Virus record (IMG/VR): IMGVR_UViG_2675903578_000012
Source of the DNA: a virus
Taxonomy: Duplodnaviria > Heunggongvirae > Uroviricota > Caudoviricetes
Reading direction: 5' to 3' (one strand)
Length of the DNA stretch: 5,688 bases
The translations under genes and the position numbers were made by a program. Below the pieces are notes generated by a model. It worked only from the letters and a program-made list of their open reading frames with translations. It was not told the origin of the DNA and ran no database searches. Every line of letters starts with the position of its first letter. Within the stretch, counting starts at the first letter, position 1. This document shows, piece after piece, positions 1-5,688 of this stretch.

Positions 1-35
1 GAACAGGAGGGACAGCTGATAGAAACAGAAGCCAC
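1..35 (-). CDS. insA: IS1 InsA, N-terminal 11 codons only (partial, runs off the window)
   Basis: Minus-strand GTG at 35..33 is followed by GCT TCT GTT TCT ATC AGC TGT CCC TCC TGT, giving (M)ASVSISCPSC, the known InsA N-terminus. The rest of the gene lies outside the window. Confidence 0.7.
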   Translation of the reverse strand, partial: MASVSISCPSC

Positions 36-90
36 TGGAGCACCTCAAAAACACCATCATACACTAAATCAGTAAGTTGGCAGCATCACC
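1..90 (-). mobile_element. IS1 insertion sequence, left end only (terminal inverted repeat plus insA 5' region); element continues beyond the window start
   Basis: The reverse complement of 1..90 reads GGTGATGCTGCCAACTTACTGATTTAGTGTATGATGGTGTTTTTGAGGTGCTCCAGTGGCTTCTGTTTCTATCAGCTGTCCCTCCTGTTC. I recognise this as the canonical first ~90 bp of IS1, with the terminal inverted repeat GGTGATGCTGCCAACTTACTGAT at window 68..90. Identity stops at position 91/92. Recognition is from memory of the IS1 sequence, not a database search. Confidence 0.85.
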
Positions 91-91
91 C

Positions 92-202
92 CGCCACAGA
101 ACAATTATTGCTTTTGCCGTTGATGACAATAAAGTTTTTATCGCAGGCGTATACCACGGTGGGCAAATCTATGAAACCGATTTTTTATCCAGTGCACCGT
201 AA
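92..202 (+). pseudogene. 3' remnant of a RelE/ParE-superfamily-like toxin gene, apparently truncated by the IS1 insertion (36 codons plus TAA)
   Basis: The frame starting at 92 translates to RHRTIIAFAVDDNKVFIAGVYHGGQIYETDFLSSAP, with TAA at 200..202. The pattern (basic, hydrophobic run, V-D-D-x-K-V-F-I-x-x-V-x-H) resembles the C-terminal strand/His region of RelE/StbE/YoeB-type toxins. There is no start codon: the frame runs into the IS1 end at 90 and meets a stop inside IS1 at 65..67. The family call is by eye and tentative. Confidence 0.3.
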
Positions 203-242: not shown

Positions 243-1325
243 TCATTTTCTCTGGCTGATCTTTACCGGATAACCATCCCGAAGATCAATTAAGTGCTCC
301 GGTTCAGAAGCAAACCATGCATAAGATCCCCACGCCAATTCTGGTATTGCCTTTTTAAAAGGCAGAGCACTTCTGTCCATAAATGCCGTAAGGAATGCAA
401 GATTTTTCTCGCTGAACCCAGCGTCAATAGCCAAATGAGTGAGAGTAACTTTTCGTTCCCTGTTTATAGGCCCATCTGTCGCAACTACTTCAGTGAAAAC
501 TACAAGCATGTCCGAACCCGTTCGGTCCTCTCCCAAATCAATCAAAATAATATCTGGAAGTGCTTTTGAGGCATCAATATTCAGCCCCAATGCTTTTGCC
601 AATACATCATCCTGAGCAACAACTTTATTCCCGGATTCAGACAACCAGAGCACAGTTGGATTCTTAAGAAAATTAGGAGCAAAAACTTCGATGACGGCCT
701 TAGCTATTGTACTTGACGGGCCCGGAGCTAAAGTTCTCTTCTCTCCATTTGGGAAAGTGACGACTACGGCATCAGCAGCAATCACTGCCCCTGATTTCAA
801 TAAACGCAACCTAGCAAGAGCGGCTTTGTTCAAATGATTTTCTTGCCAGGAACTTATTGCACTCAGCAGCGAATCTCCTTCAAGCCCGGCATCAAAGAGT
901 GCTGCAAAAGAGCGATTCAAACTGTAACGAGGACGAGAGGATGTGGTGGGTATACCTTTACGCTCAACAATTGCATTGCAAGGTATTAGGCCATTTTTTA
1001 TAGTTTCATCACGTATTGGCTCACGCGTATTTTCCGCATACCATGCATCAGCAGGCCTTATCTTTTGTTTAGAGAAAGTCATCTTTACCCAGCTTTCTCT
1101 GGACGCATCATCAGTAAGAGCAGCCTGCGAATCTCCCATACTTACAACCTGGCTGGGCCTTATCCATCGCCCCAGCCCCTCAACCGCACCAGCATAAAAC
1201 ATGACAAAAATTGTTTTTGCAGCTATTTCCCGAATTAAATATCCACGATTCTCAGTCCCTTCAGGGAAAATTAATTGTAATCTTTCCCGGATAACATTCA
1301 ATGGGGGAACAACAGGCAGATTCAT
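243..1325 (-). CDS. Putative Type II restriction endonuclease (360 aa), possibly BsuBI/PstI-like; R subunit of an M-R operon
   Basis: A 1083-nt minus-strand ORF with ATG at 1325..1323 and TGA at 245..243. Its ATG overlaps the methyltransferase stop as ATGA, and a GGAG Shine-Dalgarno lies about 9 nt upstream inside the methyltransferase 3' end. The role is inferred mainly from this coupling to an N6-adenine methyltransferase; I could not pin down a clean PD-(D/E)xK motif by eye. The BsuBI/PstI family suggestion rests on recollection that this family is commonly paired with Eco57I/PstI-type methyltransferases, and is unverified. Confidence 0.6.
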   Translation of the reverse strand: MNLPVVPPLNVIRERLQLIFPEGTENRGYLIREIAAKTIFVMFYAGAVEGLGRWIRPSQVVSMGDSQAALTDDASRESWVKMTFSKQKIRPADAWYAENTREPIRDETIKNGLIPCNAIVERKGIPTTSSRPRYSLNRSFAALFDAGLEGDSLLSAISSWQENHLNKAALARLRLLKSGAVIAADAVVVTFPNGEKRTLAPGPSSTIAKAVIEVFAPNFLKNPTVLWLSESGNKVVAQDDVLAKALGLNIDASKALPDIILIDLGEDRTGSDMLVVFTEVVATDGPINRERKVTLTHLAIDAGFSEKNLAFLTAFMDRSALPFKKAIPELAWGSYAWFASEPEHLIDLRDGYPVKISQRK

Positions 1326-3217
1326 GCAATCATCACTCCATAGAAACCAGCGATAGTTCTCTCAATAATCCGTCTGTGGACGCCAGCATCAATTAACGAT
1401 TGAATCTCCATCACCTGCTCCAGAGAAGGCAACGGGATTGAATTCAATTCATAGGCCGAAACAGCAACACTTCCGCTTATACACCTGAACGCCCGATCGA
1501 CAACATGCGAATTAAGTAGCATATCAATAACATCAGGGCGAACCGCAGAGANNNNNNNNNNNNNNNNNNNNNNNNNNNNNNNNNNNNNNNNNNNNNNNNN
1601 NNNNNNNNNNNNNNNNNNNNNNNNNNNNNNNNNNNNNNNNNNNNNNNNNNNNNNNNNNNNNNNNNNNNNNNNNNNNNNNNNNNNNNNNNNNNNNNNNNNN
1701 NNNNNNNNNNNNNNNNNNNNNNNNNNNNNNNNNNNNNNNNNNNNNNNNNNNNNNNNNNNNNNNNNNNNNNNNNNNNNNNNNNNNNNNNNNNNNNNNNNNN
1801 NNNNNNNATGATTTTTTCTGTCTGCACTAAAACGAAAACCAGCTGAAGTTATTGATTCCGCCCAGACTAATGGGTAGCTATTTTTTCCTTTCGTCGTACG
1901 CAACTGCGACTTAAATCGATTCCAGACTAACTGACCTGTAGAGACTGAGTATCCCAGATCAGCTAAACGCGTAGACATCTGTTTTAATACATTAAGAAAA
2001 CAGGCATCATCTTTAACGCGTGGCAAAAGCCACGTTGCTCCACCTTTTTCTATATCAACATTACCTATTTTCTCAATTTTTGCTTTGTTCAACCCCTTAG
2101 GGACAAGTGAGGATACCTGGGCCCGAACTTTATGTTCTCCCGCCTTGAATGCTGTCAACATTGTTTCCTGGAGAACATCGTCAAAGACCCCATCCCTGTC
2201 AGTGACGAAATCAAGGGCATACGGAGTAGTTTTTTCGGTCAAAAGGGTTCGCAGCGCGGTGAAATACTGCCCACCAAGAAAAGAAGTTGGCGTAAGAAAT
2301 GCAATAACTCCTGTTTTCTCTTTAACCATGCGAACAGCTAAGTCGGTGAACAATCCATATAGATTTGCATGACCAAATAACGAACGAGAATATTTTTCTC
2401 TCGTTTTAATATCGAGAGTGACACGTCCGTAAGGCGGATTCCCTACCACAAGATCATAACCAGAAAATTTATCTTGCTGAAGCGCATCAGCAACAATAAT
2501 TGTATCTTCAGGCAATCTACGTTTTACCTTTACACATAGTGGCATTAGTACAGATTCGAGCAATACCAAACTCATCCAAGCCGCAAATGGATCGATCTCT
2601 ATCCCCTTTAAACGACGACTGATTCTCCTCAACATCCATTCAGGGGAAGACCCCTTGTCTTTTTTTAACATTCGAATGGCTACTGGTGCCAAAAATGCAC
2701 CGCCACCACACGCAGGATCAATAACCGATGCATGAGAAAAATCAACACCAGACTTTTCAGCCAGGTCCAAGAGACGCGCTACCAAAGGTGGGGGGGTATA
2801 GTAAGCCCCCAATTCCGAACGGTAAGCGGATGGCAGCATTACCGTATAAATTGACCCAATCAGATATCCAGCGTCCTCCGCCGGAAATTGAGCAATAAGC
2901 TCACCTGTTCGTTCAGCGAGCTCGCGTGCATCACATGGAATGTCTTCTATGTAAACAGTGTGCGGTACTGCCCTCATTTTAATGCTGCTTTTTTGCTTTT
3001 TTGCAAGGGTATCCCAATATGCAGCTACGATGCTGAAGCAGTATGAGCGGGCATGCATCAACCTTGACTGCCCGGTTTTGTAATTGCCCGCATAACCTTT
3101 GGCCATGGCTTTACAAGTTTGATATCTTTCCAGATTAGAAAACTCATTATCTGTAAAAAAATCAAAATGTTGCACATTCATAATGTAAAATCCTAATGTA
3201 TCAAACATGCGGGCCAT
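1322..3217 (-). CDS. N6-adenine DNA methyltransferase, gamma class (Eco57I/PstI/TaqI-like); M subunit; CDS spans an assembly gap, so true length is unknown
   Basis: The translated ORF contains GAYYTPPPLV (motif X-like), IDPACGGGAFL (motif I, SAM binding) and VVGNPPYGR (motif IV, the NPPY catalytic motif of amino-methyltransferases). The order X, I, IV followed by a C-terminal target-recognition region defines the gamma class. The start is ambiguous: ATG at 3217 is the longest with a weak RBS, ATG at 3208 is an alternative, and ATG at 3187 has an AGGA about 9 nt upstream. The stop TGA at 1324..1322 overlaps the R start. The frame across the N run cannot be verified. Confidence 0.8.
   Translation of the reverse strand: MARMFDTLGFYIMNVQHFDFFTDNEFSNLERYQTCKAMAKGYAGNYKTGQSRLMHARSYCFSIVAAYWDTLAKKQKSSIKMRAVPHTVYIEDIPCDARELAERTGELIAQFPAEDAGYLIGSIYTVMLPSAYRSELGAYYTPPPLVARLLDLAEKSGVDFSHASVIDPACGGGAFLAPVAIRMLKKDKGSSPEWMLRRISRRLKGIEIDPFAAWMSLVLLESVLMPLCVKVKRRLPEDTIIVADALQQDKFSGYDLVVGNPPYGRVTLDIKTREKYSRSLFGHANLYGLFTDLAVRMVKEKTGVIAFLTPTSFLGGQYFTALRTLLTEKTTPYALDFVTDRDGVFDDVLQETMLTAFKAGEHKVRAQVSSLVPKGLNKAKIEKIGNVDIEKGGATWLLPRVKDDACFLNVLKQMSTRLADLGYSVSTGQLVWNRFKSQLRTTKGKNSYPLVWAESITSAGFRFSADRKNHXXXXXXXXXXXXXXXXXXXXXXXXXXXXXXXXXXXXXXXXXXXXXXXXXXXXXXXXXXXXXXXXXXXXXXXXXXXXXXXXXXXXXXSAVRPDVIDMLLNSHVVDRAFRCISGSVAVSAYELNSIPLPSLEQVMEIQSLIDAGVHRRIIERTIAGFYGVMIA
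1552..1807. other. Assembly gap (256 N) inside the methyltransferase C-terminal / target-recognition region
   Basis: An uninterrupted run of n from 1552 to 1807. The X runs in the ORF track, and the minus-strand ORF 1477..1827, are artefacts of translating through it. Confidence 0.99.
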
Positions 3218-3431
3218 AACATCTCATGGTGGCGCATAGCAAACTGGCCCGAAGAATATCACGCACCAAGTCGATCTCATAACCCGTTATGACAATAAAT
3301 CTTTGTAGCTGAACTCACTTGGTGATTTGTCAATCATTCCTGGCCTCCAGTTCGTCCTGAATCTCTTTATCGAGTTCACCGTATTTGTTAGTCCTCATCA
3401 CTCACGACTTGACTTCCAGAAATAACCTTGA
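3218..3431 (-). promoter_or_regulatory. About 214-bp intergenic region upstream of the R-M operon; presumed location of the methyltransferase promoter or operator
   Basis: This is the only sizeable non-coding stretch between tightly packed minus-strand genes. It contains a 7-2-7 inverted repeat, TCATAAC-CC-GTTATGA, at 3277..3292. No convincing sigma70 -35/-10 pair could be fixed by eye: a consensus TTGACA on the minus strand at 3333..3328 lacks a matching -10 at 16-19 bp spacing. Confidence 0.3.
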
Positions 3432-3788
3432 TTATTCGGGGCTATATTTTGTCACCCTGCGTATCCGCGCTTTCGCATTACGCTCAATCTGGATTAGCTT
3501 TTCTATATTTTTTCGCCTTTCCCGCTCCTCCTGGCGCAAGAGCCTTACATCATCTGCCAGTCTGGTTTCTCTTTTCGCCACAGAGAGCATCCAGTCAAAT
3601 GGCTCCACAACTGCACCGCAAATTTTACAGCGGACCTGACGCTCTTTTTCGTCAACCCGGACAGAAGCGTGATGGCAATATGGTCTTTCCGATGGCTCAT
3701 AAAGAAAATTAACCTGATTACGAGGGTTATCCTCTTTTACCGGAAATAAAACAATATTGCTTAACTCATCTTCTGGTTTTATTTCCAT
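3432..3788 (-). CDS. Hypothetical phage protein (118 aa) with a zinc-ribbon-like C-x-HH ... C-x2-C motif and a basic, coiled C-terminus
   Basis: ATG at 3788..3786 is preceded by AAGGAG with a 6-nt spacer. The protein begins MEIKPEDEL and contains PYCHHASVRVDEKERQVRCKICGAV, then an Arg/Glu-rich tail. The ORF track's longer version starts at GTG 3845, directly after the upstream stop; this is possible but the ATG has the better RBS. Stop TAA at 3434..3432. Confidence 0.6.
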   Translation of the reverse strand: MEIKPEDELSNIVLFPVKEDNPRNQVNFLYEPSERPYCHHASVRVDEKERQVRCKICGAVVEPFDWMLSVAKRETRLADDVRLLRQEERERRKNIEKLIQIERNAKARIRRVTKYSPE

Positions 3789-3845
3789 GCTCCTCTCCTT
3801 TGATGCGAATGCCAGCGGTAATTGAAGCCTGATAGCTAATTTCAC

Positions 3846-4268
3846 TCACAGTACCGCCTCCTGAAAATCACCCTGATAGAAAGCCGGTACACGCTGCATA
3901 ACTTCACTCTTCCGGCACTCGCGACAGATTATGTTCTGATGTCTGTCGTAGCGGCGTATTTCTCCGTCCGGTAATGACCAGATAAGGTCCGGATCAACCA
4001 CAGATGGTTTCTTCAGCTTTGCCCTCGAGAGTTTTTTGCGGGCGTTTTGCCAGTCCTTACGAGCCTGTTCAGACGGGAATAACCCGTAGCCAGAGTTGTA
4101 TACATCCCCACTGGCAACCAGCTCTCTGGCGAGAACGCTTATTAAATATCTTGTCGCCCCGGTTTTAGCTTCCAGTTGTCGTAACGTCTCGCGCCCACTC
4201 TGGCGTACGAGTTCAACAACCTGCCCCTTAATTTTTTCCCGCTCTTCCTGTGTAAATACTTTTGCCAT
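3846..4268 (-). CDS. Hypothetical phage protein (140 aa) with one CxxC pair near the C-terminus
   Basis: ATG at 4268..4266 (MAKVFTQEEREKIKG...) lies 15 nt downstream of the upstream gene's stop, preceded by a weak G-rich RBS (GGGGG). The TTG at 4283 used by the track is probably an over-extension. The protein contains ICRECRKS. Stop TGA at 3848..3846. Confidence 0.6.
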   Translation of the reverse strand: MAKVFTQEEREKIKGQVVELVRQSGRETLRQLEAKTGATRYLISVLARELVASGDVYNSGYGLFPSEQARKDWQNARKKLSRAKLKKPSVVDPDLIWSLPDGEIRRYDRHQNIICRECRKSEVMQRVPAFYQGDFQEAVL

Positions 4269-4283
4269 AAGCGCCCCCGGCAA

Positions 4284-5009
4284 TCACTTTTCCGACACAA
4301 TACGACCGGAGGAATCGACAATCTGTCGAACAATATCCCGGTGCTTGTTCAGCTCCCGCAACGCGGCGCAGACACGCTCCCACTTCTGGACATGACTTTT
4401 CGCCCGACGCAGTTCGCGGTTTGCCATATGCAGCGATGGTAAAACCAGGTCATCCGCTTGCGTTTCGGTGAACGATGGCAACGACTGCACAATGTCCGCC
4501 ACAGTTTCTGTTTTAATTTCTTCCTGTGTTGCAGCTTCCTGTACCGGTAACGCAACACCTGCTGGCTGAGGAAAGACTTTACCATCCGTTTCCGCTATGG
4601 ATGCGGCTTTCGGCTCTGCCGGTAAATCAGCGCCCGGTATGCAGTACCGAAATTTACCGCCCTGATTCACGCGAATCAGACGCCCTTTGCTGATTGCCAT
4701 GGCCAGCGATGAATTCGCCCGGCGGGAGGTAATCCCGAACATCAGTGCCAGCTCATCCGCCGTTTGTGGGCCATGTTGTTCAATCGCCTCAGTCAGCATT
4801 TGCGCTGTCACTTTCGGTACCGGTGACACTGGTTCACTTTCACCAGCCTGAATCAGCCACCACATCGAACCCTTGTTATCCGCTTCACCACGGCGCTTCA
4901 GTTTCCACAGTTCGTTGACCGCATCTTCACGGCTGATTCCAAGGCGGGACGCCACCACATGTGAAGAGGCTCTTTTCAGTGCTTTCAGTGCGTCAAATAC
5001 AGTTTCCAT
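4284..5009 (-). CDS. Phage hypothetical protein (241 aa), apparently two winged-helix-like modules followed by an acidic linker and a basic C-terminal helix; of the kind found just downstream of dnaC-like genes in enterobacterial lambdoid prophages
   Basis: ATG at 5009..5007 ([13 protein letters not shown]...) is preceded by GGAGG with an 8-nt spacer. The TTG at 5027 in the ORF track is an over-extension. Segments such as [20 protein letters not shown] and [23 protein letters not shown] look like HTH/wing elements; the fold call is by eye. Stop TGA at 4286..4284. Confidence 0.7.
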
Positions 5010-5030: not shown

Positions 5031-5688
5031 TTACTTCACAACTCCCGGAAAGCTGACATTTGAACGCCAGCTATCCCAGTTAAACGTCACCCACCGACAA
5101 CCGTTCATGGTCATGCGGTCCATAATCCTCTCACCAAGAAGCGTGCTCATTGCGGCATGATTCAGGTTTGTTAACATCCCGACACTGCACAGTGATGCTG
5201 TCCGGCGATCAATTATCTGGTGCAATACCACCTGCTCGTTTTTCGTCTCCCGCTGAATGCCTATTTCATCCAGGACCAGCAAATCAACCCCGCAAAGCTC
5301 CTGTAAAAATTTTTCACCGGATTTGCCGTTGTCGTAGCTGTCATGCAACACGCTCATGACATCAGACTCGGTGACGATAATCACGCTGCGCCCCTTCGCC
5401 ATCAGCCGGTTACCCATCGCCGCTGCAAGGTGATTTTTCCCGGTGCCGGTTTTACCGCTGAACACAAAATTCGTGCACCCGGTCATCAGTTCGTCAGCTA
5501 TGGATTTGGCCTGGCTCAGCGCGTATTTTTGCCCGTCGTTCTGCACCTGATAATTCGCAAACGAGCATTTGCTGTGCAGAGGCTGGATGCCCGAACGATT
5601 CAGGATTTTTTCCACCCGCAACTGGCGATTCTGGCGGTTAATCTCCTCGCTGCGTTTTCGTCCTTCAGCAAGTTGCCATTCCCGCCAC
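5031..5688 (-). CDS. DnaC-like replicative helicase loader (phage replication protein, AAA+ ATPase), 5'-partial; the N-terminus lies beyond the window end
   Basis: The protein shows Walker A FSGKTGTGKNHLAAAMG and Walker B LLVLDEIG. LNRSGIQPLHSKCSFANY closely parallels the E. coli DnaC segment FNRSGIRPLHQNCSFENY, and the C-terminus FNWDSWRS matches DnaC FNWDSYRS. The frame stays open from 5621 to 5688 (reading ...WREWQLAEGRKRSEEINRQNRQL-RVEKIL...), so the track's TTG start at 5621 is internal. Stop TAA at 5033..5031. Confidence 0.9.
   Translation of the reverse strand, partial: WREWQLAEGRKRSEEINRQNRQLRVEKILNRSGIQPLHSKCSFANYQVQNDGQKYALSQAKSIADELMTGCTNFVFSGKTGTGKNHLAAAMGNRLMAKGRSVIIVTESDVMSVLHDSYDNGKSGEKFLQELCGVDLLVLDEIGIQRETKNEQVVLHQIIDRRTASLCSVGMLTNLNHAAMSTLLGERIMDRMTMNGCRWVTFNWDSWRSNVSFPGVVK

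Follow-up and report, generated by a model that had tools for sequence, protein, structure and literature searches.

Does the position of three small genes beside a restriction-modification (R-M) operon tell us anything about what these genes do? The question is raised by a 5,688-nucleotide stretch of a Caudoviricetes record, referred to here as the window, in which the genes that we term g1, g2 and g3 lie between a DnaC-like gene and an R-M operon. On the grounds of this position the first-pass annotation, made from the sequence alone, listed them as candidate DNA-binding regulators, anti-restriction or anti-defence factors, or regulators of the adjacent R-M genes, and considered them most likely to be conserved hypothetical genes of lambdoid prophages.

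Organization of the locus

The three genes are co-directional on the minus strand, downstream of the DnaC-like gene, and the coordinates given for them in the first-pass annotation were confirmed: g1 occupies positions 4284..5009 (ATG at 5009, stop at 4284; 241 aa), g2 positions 3846..4268 (ATG at 4268, stop at 3846; 140 aa), and g3 positions 3432..3788 (ATG at 3788, stop at 3432; 118 aa). The tight packing described earlier, with spacers of 15-57 nt and a ribosome-binding site for each gene, also holds. Read from the sequence, the spacers are 21 nt from the stop of the DnaC-like gene to g1, 15 nt from g1 to g2, and 57 nt from g2 to g3, and a purine-rich ribosome-binding site (GGAGGA, GGGGG and AAGGAGAGGAG) precedes every start codon. 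RefSeq places the starts of the 140-aa and 118-aa proteins identically in the closest E. coli locus, and the g3 start is also backed by a cross-genus alignment. A scan within g1-g3 found neither a sigma-70-like promoter nor a minus-strand terminator, and a single polycistronic early transcript would therefore fit. Each of the exact g1, g2 and g3 proteins occurs on at least about 1,000 contigs; the three are real, conserved genes and did not arise as ORFs by chance. The proteins are all basic, with overall pI values of 8.5, 9.6 and 8.8.

Upstream lies a DnaC-like helicase-loader gene of the YdaV type (5031..5688, minus strand), the 5' end of which is past the right edge of the window. Its match to NCBIfam NF009043 (2.9e-119) covers model positions 53-248 of 248, so that about 52 N-terminal residues are missing; in identical loci the protein has its full length of 248 aa. 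The gene also matches Pfam IstB_IS21 and PHROG 50, "DnaC-like helicase loader". Downstream of g3, a 214-nt spacer (3218..3431) forms the left border of inserted cargo. A consensus promoter scan of this spacer found none, and the best R-M promoter candidate seen by eye, TTGACA-20 nt-TACAAA, was rejected for its poor spacer. The cargo comprises an N6-adenine DNA methyltransferase gene, M (1322..3217, minus strand, with a run of N at 1552-1807), and the gene of a type II restriction endonuclease of the BsuBI/PstI family, R (243..1325, minus strand), the start of which overlaps the M stop codon. M matches Pfam Eco57I and N6_Mtase as well as PADLOC MTase_II (7e-259), and its product has 610 aa in identical loci; R matches PF06616 (9.3e-45), PF17728 (1.2e-30) and PADLOC REase_II (2.8e-128). 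The remaining plus-strand segment (1..202) consists of an IS1 end (1 to ~91), identical at 100% to IS1 on thousands of plasmids and chromosomes, and the abutting 3' remnant of a ParE toxin gene (~92-202). Where the window has this IS1/ParE remnant, the closest E. coli locus (L001) has an intact ParD/ParE pair. An Rfam search of the window returned zero RNA families.

The window derives from a cryptic remnant, cut by IS1, of a prophage at the Qin site of Shigella (sonnei); in the source genomes the host gene ydfI comes immediately after IS1. The Shigella element has lost Q and the lysis and structural genes, and it contains IS1 throughout. As the prophage is defective in this host, g1-g3 may be silent there. 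The same genes are also carried by inducible and virion-derived phages.

Families of the three proteins

NCBIfam and PADLOC searches gave no match for g1, g2 or g3; it should be noted that PADLOC comprises models of defence systems, not of anti-restriction proteins. Sequence searches of the PDB (with a profile in the case of g3) returned only noise, with E values of ~0.06 or worse. The earlier opinion that none of the three could be assigned was nevertheless too pessimistic, given that g1 falls into the DUF1627 YdaW family and g2 into both DUF977 and the PHROG of lambda Ren.

The match of g1 to PF07789 extends over the complete model (positions 1-155 of 155; 5.9e-93; 309.2 bits against a cutoff of 28.1), and phrog_630 is matched at 1.7e-121. 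In the AF2 model, the confidence of which is low (mean pLDDT 62, from a shallow alignment of sequences at 82-95% identity), a winged helix-turn-helix (wHTH) at residues ~4-39 is followed by another at residues 69-123, a disordered acidic linker (131-189), and a long C-terminal helix (186-240) that may serve in oligomerisation. This model agrees with the tandem winged-helix-like character proposed on first pass, and the best hits of a Foldseek search with it are tandem-wHTH and MarR/ArsR proteins, including ScpB and DIP2311. Judged by sequence and gene order, g1 is the orthologue of YdaW (b1361) of the K-12 Rac prophage: the two are 57% identical over residues 1-139, a region that covers both winged helices; both are encoded directly after a DnaC-like ydaV; and the order ydaV-ydaW is common to K-12, phage Rac and the window. 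The K-12 protein, however, is truncated to 186 aa and lacks the conserved C-terminal helix. The sole phenotype reported for YdaW is that of a blocker hit in an overexpression screen against the RcaT toxin of retron-Sen2 (bioRxiv 10.1101/2020.06.22.160242), which is a screen hit obtained with the truncated K-12 protein, not with a full-length one. The second winged helix of g1 gives a weak match to phrog_142 (1.9e-4); since direct BLASTP comparisons of g1 with g2 and with lambda Ren found nothing, this match reflects a generic winged helix only. The gene is present in 31 of 64 related viral contigs and missing from the closest E. coli locus.

DUF977, a family recognised as a winged helix (PMC2686095), accounts for g2 from end to end (PF06163 model positions 1-134 of 134; 2.2e-30; 105.9 bits against a cutoff of 22.1). 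The protein also matches phrog_142, "Ren-like exclusion protein" (2e-46; profile positions 1-115 of 116), as does lambda Ren (1.6e-41; positions 11-110 of 116). Ren is the Rex-exclusion determinant of lambda. In g2, an N-terminal wHTH and a basic linker are followed by the C-terminal motif NIICRECRKSEVMQRV, which contains the CxxC pair seen on first pass. Its members, C115 and C118, are the only two cysteines of the protein, and the first of them is Phe in lambda Ren; a zinc site at this position was ruled out for both reasons. Ren resembles g2 in having an N-terminal winged helix and, at the C-terminus, the motif N-[IL]-[IV]-x-[RK]-E-C-R-[KQ]-S-x-x-M-[QK]-R-V, and g2 exceeds it by 44 residues, with a basic insert between these two parts. 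Both genes lie downstream of a helicase-loader gene in a pR operon: in lambda, P is followed by ren; in L001, the DUF977 gene comes immediately after the DnaC-like gene; in the window, g1 stands between the loader gene and g2. The relationship of g2 to Ren is based on the common PHROG profile and a 20-residue motif, with pairwise similarity elsewhere being insignificant. BLASTP aligned only the C-terminal 20 residues (10 of 20 identical; E = 1e-5 in a single comparison), the winged-helix regions align in MAFFT with a score that is not significant, and lambda Ren is below the reach of the Pfam DUF977 model. Ren, which interacts with Rex proteins, has been described as "likely involved in DNA replication" (bioRxiv 10.1101/2021.04.19.439022). 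The name "LygF", which phage records give to g2, was found in the literature only for the Salmonella Enteritidis Sdf region, with no function attached.

The third protein matches phrog_1621 (1.1e-54), and a profile search with g3 gathered 1,629 clusters at 50% identity; no relatives were found in Pfam, NCBIfam, PADLOC or the PDB. Its acidic, disordered N-terminus (pI 4.4) carries an ELxNVVxFP motif and is followed by the putative zinc ligands C38-x-H40...C54-x2-C57 and by a helix (residues 63-115) that ends in NIEKLIQIERNAKARIRR; the C-terminal 35 residues have a pI of 10.9. The Cys/His motif and basic tail reported on first pass are therefore both present. In an alignment of 58 distant homologues C38, C54 and C57 are invariant, H40 is conserved in 96%, and more than 90% have N104 and R108; across genera and down to 25-30% identity, the cysteines remain invariant and the helix (ERNAKARIR) near-invariant. 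The AF2 model has a pLDDT of ~92-94 over residues 81-110. Zinc binding by g3 is predicted from the ligand pattern, a beta-hairpin in the AF2 model, and a sub-threshold Zn_Ribbon_TF match; this similarity to the TFIIB zinc ribbon scores 21.6 bits against a cutoff of 29, with a Foldseek E of 0.17. Fold searches otherwise returned generic zinc ribbons and generic long helices and no specific structural relative, and neither the Pfam search nor the AF2 model contains an HTH. A separate observation, which we regard as a lead only, is that NIVLF in g3 resembles the clamp-binding QLxLF motif.

Gene neighbourhoods and the R-M cassette

The arrangement seen in the window is one of several. In the closest E. 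coli locus the order is cro, YdaT, replisome organizer, DnaC-like, DUF977, 118-aa protein, M, R, ParDE, DUF968, RusA and Q. In phage Rac 442/2, ydaV, DUF1627 and DUF977 are followed by other small genes, with neither g3 nor R-M. Among the 64 viral contigs, g2 immediately precedes g3 in 41, and in another 17 it precedes g3 with an insert between the two. In other Enterobacterales, homologues of g3 are found between the nin-region nucleases (NinG, YbcO, DUF968, RusA) and the antiterminator Q, and not beside defence genes: NinG/YbcO/DUF968 lie upstream of g3 in 13 other-genus loci, and in 11 of the 13 Q, which belongs to three different Pfam families, is the first or second ORF after g3. More distant relatives stand between MT-A70 or replication genes and RusA-DUF968-Q. 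Often, translation of g3 is coupled to that of the gene before it. The position of its homologues resembles that of lambda ninH and ninI, which lie between ninG and Q; g3 matched no named family of Pfam or PHROG, and thus none that would link it to a named Nin protein, and a tblastn search of the phage collection returned unnamed proteins only.

These genes are far more widespread than the cassette next to them. Of 5,426 complete E. coli genomes, 2,396 carry g1, 4,051 carry g2 and 1,680 carry g3; the R-M cassette is present in 2. The view that g1-g3 are conserved genes of lambdoid prophages is upheld; at 31-75% of complete E. coli genomes, they are among the commonest uncharacterised prophage genes of E. 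coli and Shigella. A junction query had 2,135 E. coli matches, only 2 of which run on into M. Homology to other prophages stops at window position 3428 or 3446, i.e., at the g3 stop codon, and variable cargo lies beyond. In related loci this cargo includes DUF7167 small ORFs, a PP2C phosphatase with a Ser/Thr kinase, QueH, and Mom-like and hok-like genes. M and R occur together in 4 of 61 viral contigs, with products 99-100% identical to those of the window, and the same R-M genes are found without g1 in the closest E. coli locus. Thus, g1-g3 and the R-M cassette are inherited independently, and g1-g3 adjoin R-M genes because a rare cassette was inserted directly after g3.

The case for regulators or anti-restriction factors, as far as it was derived from the position upstream of the R-M genes, is not supported by this comparison. 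The first-pass annotation itself had named, as an outcome that would speak against it, neighbourhoods in which the genes are ubiquitous in prophages and have no association with defence loci, and ubiquitous genes next to a cassette present in two genomes are what was found.

Preferred reading and its alternatives

In our opinion, g1-g3 are very probably (at a probability of about 0.85) the distal section of an early operon, the rightward (pR-type) one of a lambdoid prophage of the Rac/Qin type; they constitute no functional unit and have no tie to the R-M genes, and M-R together with ParDE is cargo. Under this explanation g1 would be an optional accessory gene of the replication module, g2 the local counterpart of lambda ren, the gene after the helicase-loader gene in lambda, and g3 a nin-region gene that elsewhere stands among NinG, YbcO, DUF968 and RusA, directly before antiterminator Q. 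M and R, together with a ParDE module, would have entered a variable insertion site, which begins at the stop codon of g3. All three proteins would presumably be made early after induction. The winged helices of g1 and g2 would bind DNA or replication proteins, modulating phage replication; or, by analogy with Ren against Rex and with YdaW overexpression against the retron toxin, the two proteins might protect replication from abortive infection. The ligand of the basic helix of g3 would be nucleic acid or a conserved host machine, with the putative zinc ribbon as a scaffold.

Control of the neighbouring R-M genes by all three genes, or just by g3, in the manner of a controller (C) protein that delays the nuclease is, by comparison, scarcely credible. 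C proteins have an Xre-type HTH, are normally encoded beside the R gene, and are inherited with their cassette. Like g1-g3, they are small proteins whose genes lie upstream of, and in the same orientation as, R-M genes, and it is only position, with the end of g3 214 nt upstream of M, that favours this idea, apart from the DNA-binding folds predicted for g1 and g2. Co-occurrence contradicts it, given two genomes with the cassette against 1,680-4,051 with the genes and a homology break exactly at the g3 stop codon, as do the same R-M genes occurring without g1 and the NinG and Q neighbours of g3 homologues in other genera; moreover, g3 lacks an HTH and is separated from R by M. A role of at least one of the three as a classical anti-restriction protein, i.e., a DNA mimic or a Lar/Ral-type alleviator shielding the induced phage, is also quite improbable. 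Early expression beside replication genes is typical of anti-restriction genes, and the acidic N-terminus and predicted zinc ribbon of g3 recall Lar-family proteins; g1 has an acidic linker. Against this, Pfam and PHROG gave no match to ArdA, Ocr, Lar_restr_allev or other anti-restriction families, and PADLOC, with its defence models, nothing relevant; the proteins are basic overall, with no strongly acidic DNA-mimic composition; and across genera g3 adjoins nucleases and Q, not the leading or early-left region. The wider suggestion of an anti-defence function fares better, having some indirect support in the action of Ren against Rex and in the ydaW hit against the retron toxin, although the R-M position as its reason has to be abandoned.

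More consideration is due to the idea that g3 is a factor in transcription or late gene expression, with RNA polymerase or the Q-dependent late switch as its target, and no replication or recombination accessory; we regard this as doubtful but conceivable. The proximity of Q in the 11 other-genus loci, whichever of the three unrelated families it belongs to, agrees with such a factor, and so does the frequent translational coupling of g3 to its upstream gene; its only profile and fold similarity, albeit weak, is to the zinc ribbon of TFIIB, which binds RNA polymerase, and its Arg-rich conserved helix resembles RNA- and DNA-binding basic regions in composition. The TFIIB match, however, is below threshold, cargo, RusA, DUF968 or ANT genes lie between g3 and Q in E. 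coli, Shigella and distant loci, and adjacency within a densely packed nin region is weak evidence. A bolder proposal, which we consider unlikely, would join g1 and g2, as a YdaW/Ren winged-helix pair countering abortive-infection systems (retron, Rex), with g3 as a member of a large undescribed phage protein family, the N-terminal [DE]-x-N-V-[VI]-x-F-P motif, CHCC zinc ribbon and ERNAKARIR helix of which could target a conserved host machine, be it the sliding clamp/replisome or RNA polymerase at the early-to-late switch. It is somewhat less likely still that g1-g3 are decaying, functionless passengers of a dead prophage. The losses and the many IS1 copies of the Shigella element would suit this notion, and neighbouring genes are frameshifted in some copies at related loci; yet the three ORFs are intact and widely shared as exact proteins, purifying selection on the families is clear across genera, g3 having invariant cysteines and a near-invariant helix, and the genes are present in inducible and virion-derived phages.

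The sequences and families of g1-g3 are already known, and nothing in the window is surprising. The reading of g1-g3 as part of an early operon with cargo beside it nevertheless has consequences for genome scanning, in which adjacency to a defence cassette within the nin/ren region of a prophage should not be equated with a functional link. The position that follows g3 is a hotspot for cargo, and across related phages it holds R-M, kinase/phosphatase, QueH, Mom-like, hok and other modules. Two of the three genes have relatives with counter-defence phenotypes, Ren against Rex and YdaW against the retron toxin, and the third belongs to a large family without any domain model. Together, g1-g3 are cheap and sensible targets for functional study.

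Gene array and independence of the trio from the R-M cassette

The window carries a single minus-strand gene array that comprises, from right to left, a DnaC-like helicase-loader gene (from 5031 past 5688, truncated at its 5′ end by the window edge), the three small genes g1 (4284–5009, 241 aa), g2 (3846–4268, 140 aa) and g3 (3432–3788, 118 aa), a spacer of 214 nt, a gene for an N6-adenine methyltransferase (M, 1322–3217) and a BsuBI/PstI-family endonuclease gene (R, 243–1325) that overlaps M. Successive genes from the DnaC-like gene to g3 are separated by 21, 15 and 57 nt, and each ATG of the trio is preceded by a ribosome-binding site: GGAGGA in g1, GGGGG in g2 and AAGGAGAGGAG in g3. These features, read from the sequence, bear out the coordinates and descriptions of the trio in the first-pass annotation; RefSeq places the starts of g2 and g3 identically in the closest E. 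coli locus. A sequence scan found neither a consensus promoter nor a minus-strand terminator inside the trio. The spacer between g3 and M holds a 22-codon minus-strand ORF, MRTNKYGELDKEIQDELEARND (3330–3398), which may be a remnant of a displaced downstream gene. Within M lies a run of 256 Ns (1552–1807). The same site spans 195 nt in loci L024 and L026, where the flanking parts of the M product are 100% identical to those here and the gene measures 1,833 nt, versus 1,896 nt in the window. Because both are shorter, the run exceeds the real sequence by ~63 nt and is therefore a scaffold gap or a mask of arbitrary length, not a real insertion.

The suggestion that the trio regulates the adjacent R-M genes is rejected, since the defining test is co-inheritance and the two are not co-inherited. 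Thus, among 5,426 complete E. coli genomes, the R-M cassette is present in 2, versus 2,396 for g1, 4,051 for g2 and 1,680 for g3. We surveyed 80 viral contigs, 64 of which extended far enough upstream: g2 immediately precedes g3 in 41 of the 64 and is separated from it by a 0.7–1 kb Ea22-like insert in 17, while g1 is present in 31. M and R follow g3 in 4/61 contigs, their products being 99–100% identical to those of the window. The g3 stop codon is where junction-search matches end (window position 3428 or 3446). The closest E. coli locus (96.9% identity), a Rac-like lambdoid prophage without g1, has the order cro, YdaT, replisome organizer, DnaC-like, DUF977, 118-aa protein, M, R, ParDE, DUF968, RusA, Q and lysis genes. 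In phage Rac 442/2, which has neither g3 nor R-M, ydaV, DUF1627 and DUF977 are followed by unrelated small genes and hok. These comparisons show that the trio is independent of the R-M cassette and that its genes belong to the early-right operon.

The content 3′ of g3 is highly variable across loci L023–L102, and for this reason the site behaves as a cargo hotspot, of which R-M is one rare occupant. The commonest case is DUF7167 with another small acidic ORF. Elsewhere the position is taken by Ea22-like or hok-like genes, by a eukaryotic-type Ser/Thr kinase together with a PP2C phosphatase (L038, L060, L066), by QueH (L005, L007, L025), by a Mom-like protein (L080) or by a functionally unassigned 310-aa protein (phrog_15676; L098, L101).

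DUF1627 and DUF977 proteins

The g1 product matches Pfam DUF1627 (5.9e-93) and PHROG 630. Its AlphaFold model (mean pLDDT 62; ~70–85 in folded parts) predicts a three-helix HTH unit (residues 4–39), a canonical winged helix (69–123), a disordered acidic linker (131–189) and a single long helix (186–240); Foldseek ranks MarR/ArsR regulators and tandem-winged-helix proteins (ScpB, DIP2311) as its best matches. g1 is the orthologue of YdaW of the K-12 Rac prophage, which is 57% identical over residues 1–139 and likewise follows ydaV; unlike g1, the K-12 protein is truncated. Since ydaW was a blocker hit against the retron-Sen2 toxin RcaT (bioRxiv 10.1101/2020.06.22.160242), g1 may, by analogy, also counter abortive-infection toxins.

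The g2 product matches PHROG 142, “Ren-like exclusion protein” (2e-46), and Pfam DUF977 (2.2e-30), a family whose N-terminus had already been identified as a winged helix (PMC2686095). Lambda Ren (from J02459) matches PHROG 142 over its full length (1.6e-41), and the two proteins have a C-terminal motif in common (NLVFKECRQSAAMKRVLAVY in g2 versus NIICRECRKSEVMQRVPAFY in Ren; 10/20 identical). The CxxC pair of g2 falls within this motif. A stand-alone zinc site is unlikely, because these are the only two cysteines in g2 and the first is replaced by Phe in lambda Ren. Lambda ren mutants are sensitive to Rex exclusion. g2 would act like Ren, a protein that interacts with Rex proteins and has been described as “likely involved in DNA replication” (bioRxiv 10.1101/2021.04.19.439022).

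The g3 family

PHROG 1621 (unknown function; 1.1e-54) is the only family matched by g3; a Zn_Ribbon_TF match is sub-threshold. Alignments reveal an ELxNVVxFP motif within an acidic N-terminus, invariant C38, C54 and C57, H40 in 96% of 58 distant homologues, and a strikingly conserved helix, LRxEExxRRxNIEKLIQIERNAKARIRR. The predicted structure (mean pLDDT 76; ~92–94 at residues 81–110) begins with a disordered N-terminus, which is followed by a zinc-ribbon hairpin and one helix (63–115). The N-terminal motif, [DE]-x-N-[VI]-[VI]-x-F-P (residues 8–16; window ~3741–3767), sits in the predicted disordered segment and is kept in the alignment of distant homologues. In the window it reads NIVLF, which in sequence loosely resembles the QLxLF sliding-clamp-binding motif. 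No relatives were found in the PDB, and none of 58 sampled family members matched a Pfam family at gathering score. The most likely role of the basic helix, we infer, is binding of g3 to nucleic acid or to a conserved host machine.

Some genomes carry an annotation in which the g3 frame forms the C-terminal region of a longer protein (related proteins P0006, P0010 and P0043, and loci with the 0.7–1 kb g2–g3 insert). This “ead/Ea22-like” protein (~200 aa; PF13935 and Zn_Ribbon_TF) may reflect either a genuine fusion or a start codon called too far upstream. Elsewhere in the databases, g3 is given an upstream start and has 132 aa.

In 13 species-representative loci of other genera (Kluyvera, Erwinia, Photorhabdus, Pantoea, Yersinia, Phytobacter, Enterobacter, Leclercia and others; g3 identity 39–71%), g3 does not adjoin DUF977, DUF1627 or a DnaC-like gene, so the trio is not a conserved unit. 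It is instead placed after NinG, YbcO or DUF968, whose stop codon often overlaps the start codon of g3, and a Q gene, from any of three unrelated Pfam families, is the first or second ORF after it in 11 of the 13. More distant members sit between replication or MT-A70 genes and RusA-DUF968-Q. Because of this placement with NinG/YbcO/DUF968, RusA and Q, g3 is a nin-region gene. In two distant lambdoid prophages (L104, L108), the homologue comes right after an MT-A70-type methyltransferase or small ORFs and overlaps the rusA start; a single 579-aa ORF in L104 has both DUF968 and Q-antiterminator Pfam hits.

Source element and significance

The exact g1, g2 and g3 proteins each occur on at least ~1,000 contigs of Shigella sonnei or Shigella. 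In complete 4.8-Mb Shigella chromosomes (L110–L114), the element lies between the dmsC side and ydfI-ydfZ-ydfH-ydfG-dcp, i.e., at the Qin site, and is a cryptic prophage remnant with the order repressor, cro-like, YdaT, organizer, DnaC-like, g1, g2, g3, M, R, IS1 and host genes. No Q, lysis or structural genes are present in the remnant on these chromosomes, where IS1 joins the R gene region directly to host ydfI. A second toxin-antitoxin pair, ParE/PaaA2, lies beside the repressor. The R-M and toxin-antitoxin cargo may be the cause of the remnant's retention. Window positions 1 to ~91 are the IS1 terminus, which thousands of plasmids and chromosomes match at 100%; this is why the whole-window search hit 82,122 places. 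IS1 truncates the ParE toxin gene, leaving its 3′ end alone (~92–202), whereas ParD/ParE are intact at the corresponding position in the closest E. coli locus.

An anti-restriction role of the classical type, also raised by the first-pass annotation, is unsupported, there being no family match and the proteins being basic. Its other proposal, conserved prophage hypothetical genes, holds: DUF1627, DUF977 and PHROG 1621 are known families of a very common prophage module. What remains mildly interesting, in our opinion, is the large size of the g3 family (1,629 clusters, mostly of 100–185 aa proteins, in a profile search of 1.84 billion representatives at E ≤ 1e-3), for which there is no domain model, and the counter-defence phenotypes of a relative of g1 and of a relative of g2.
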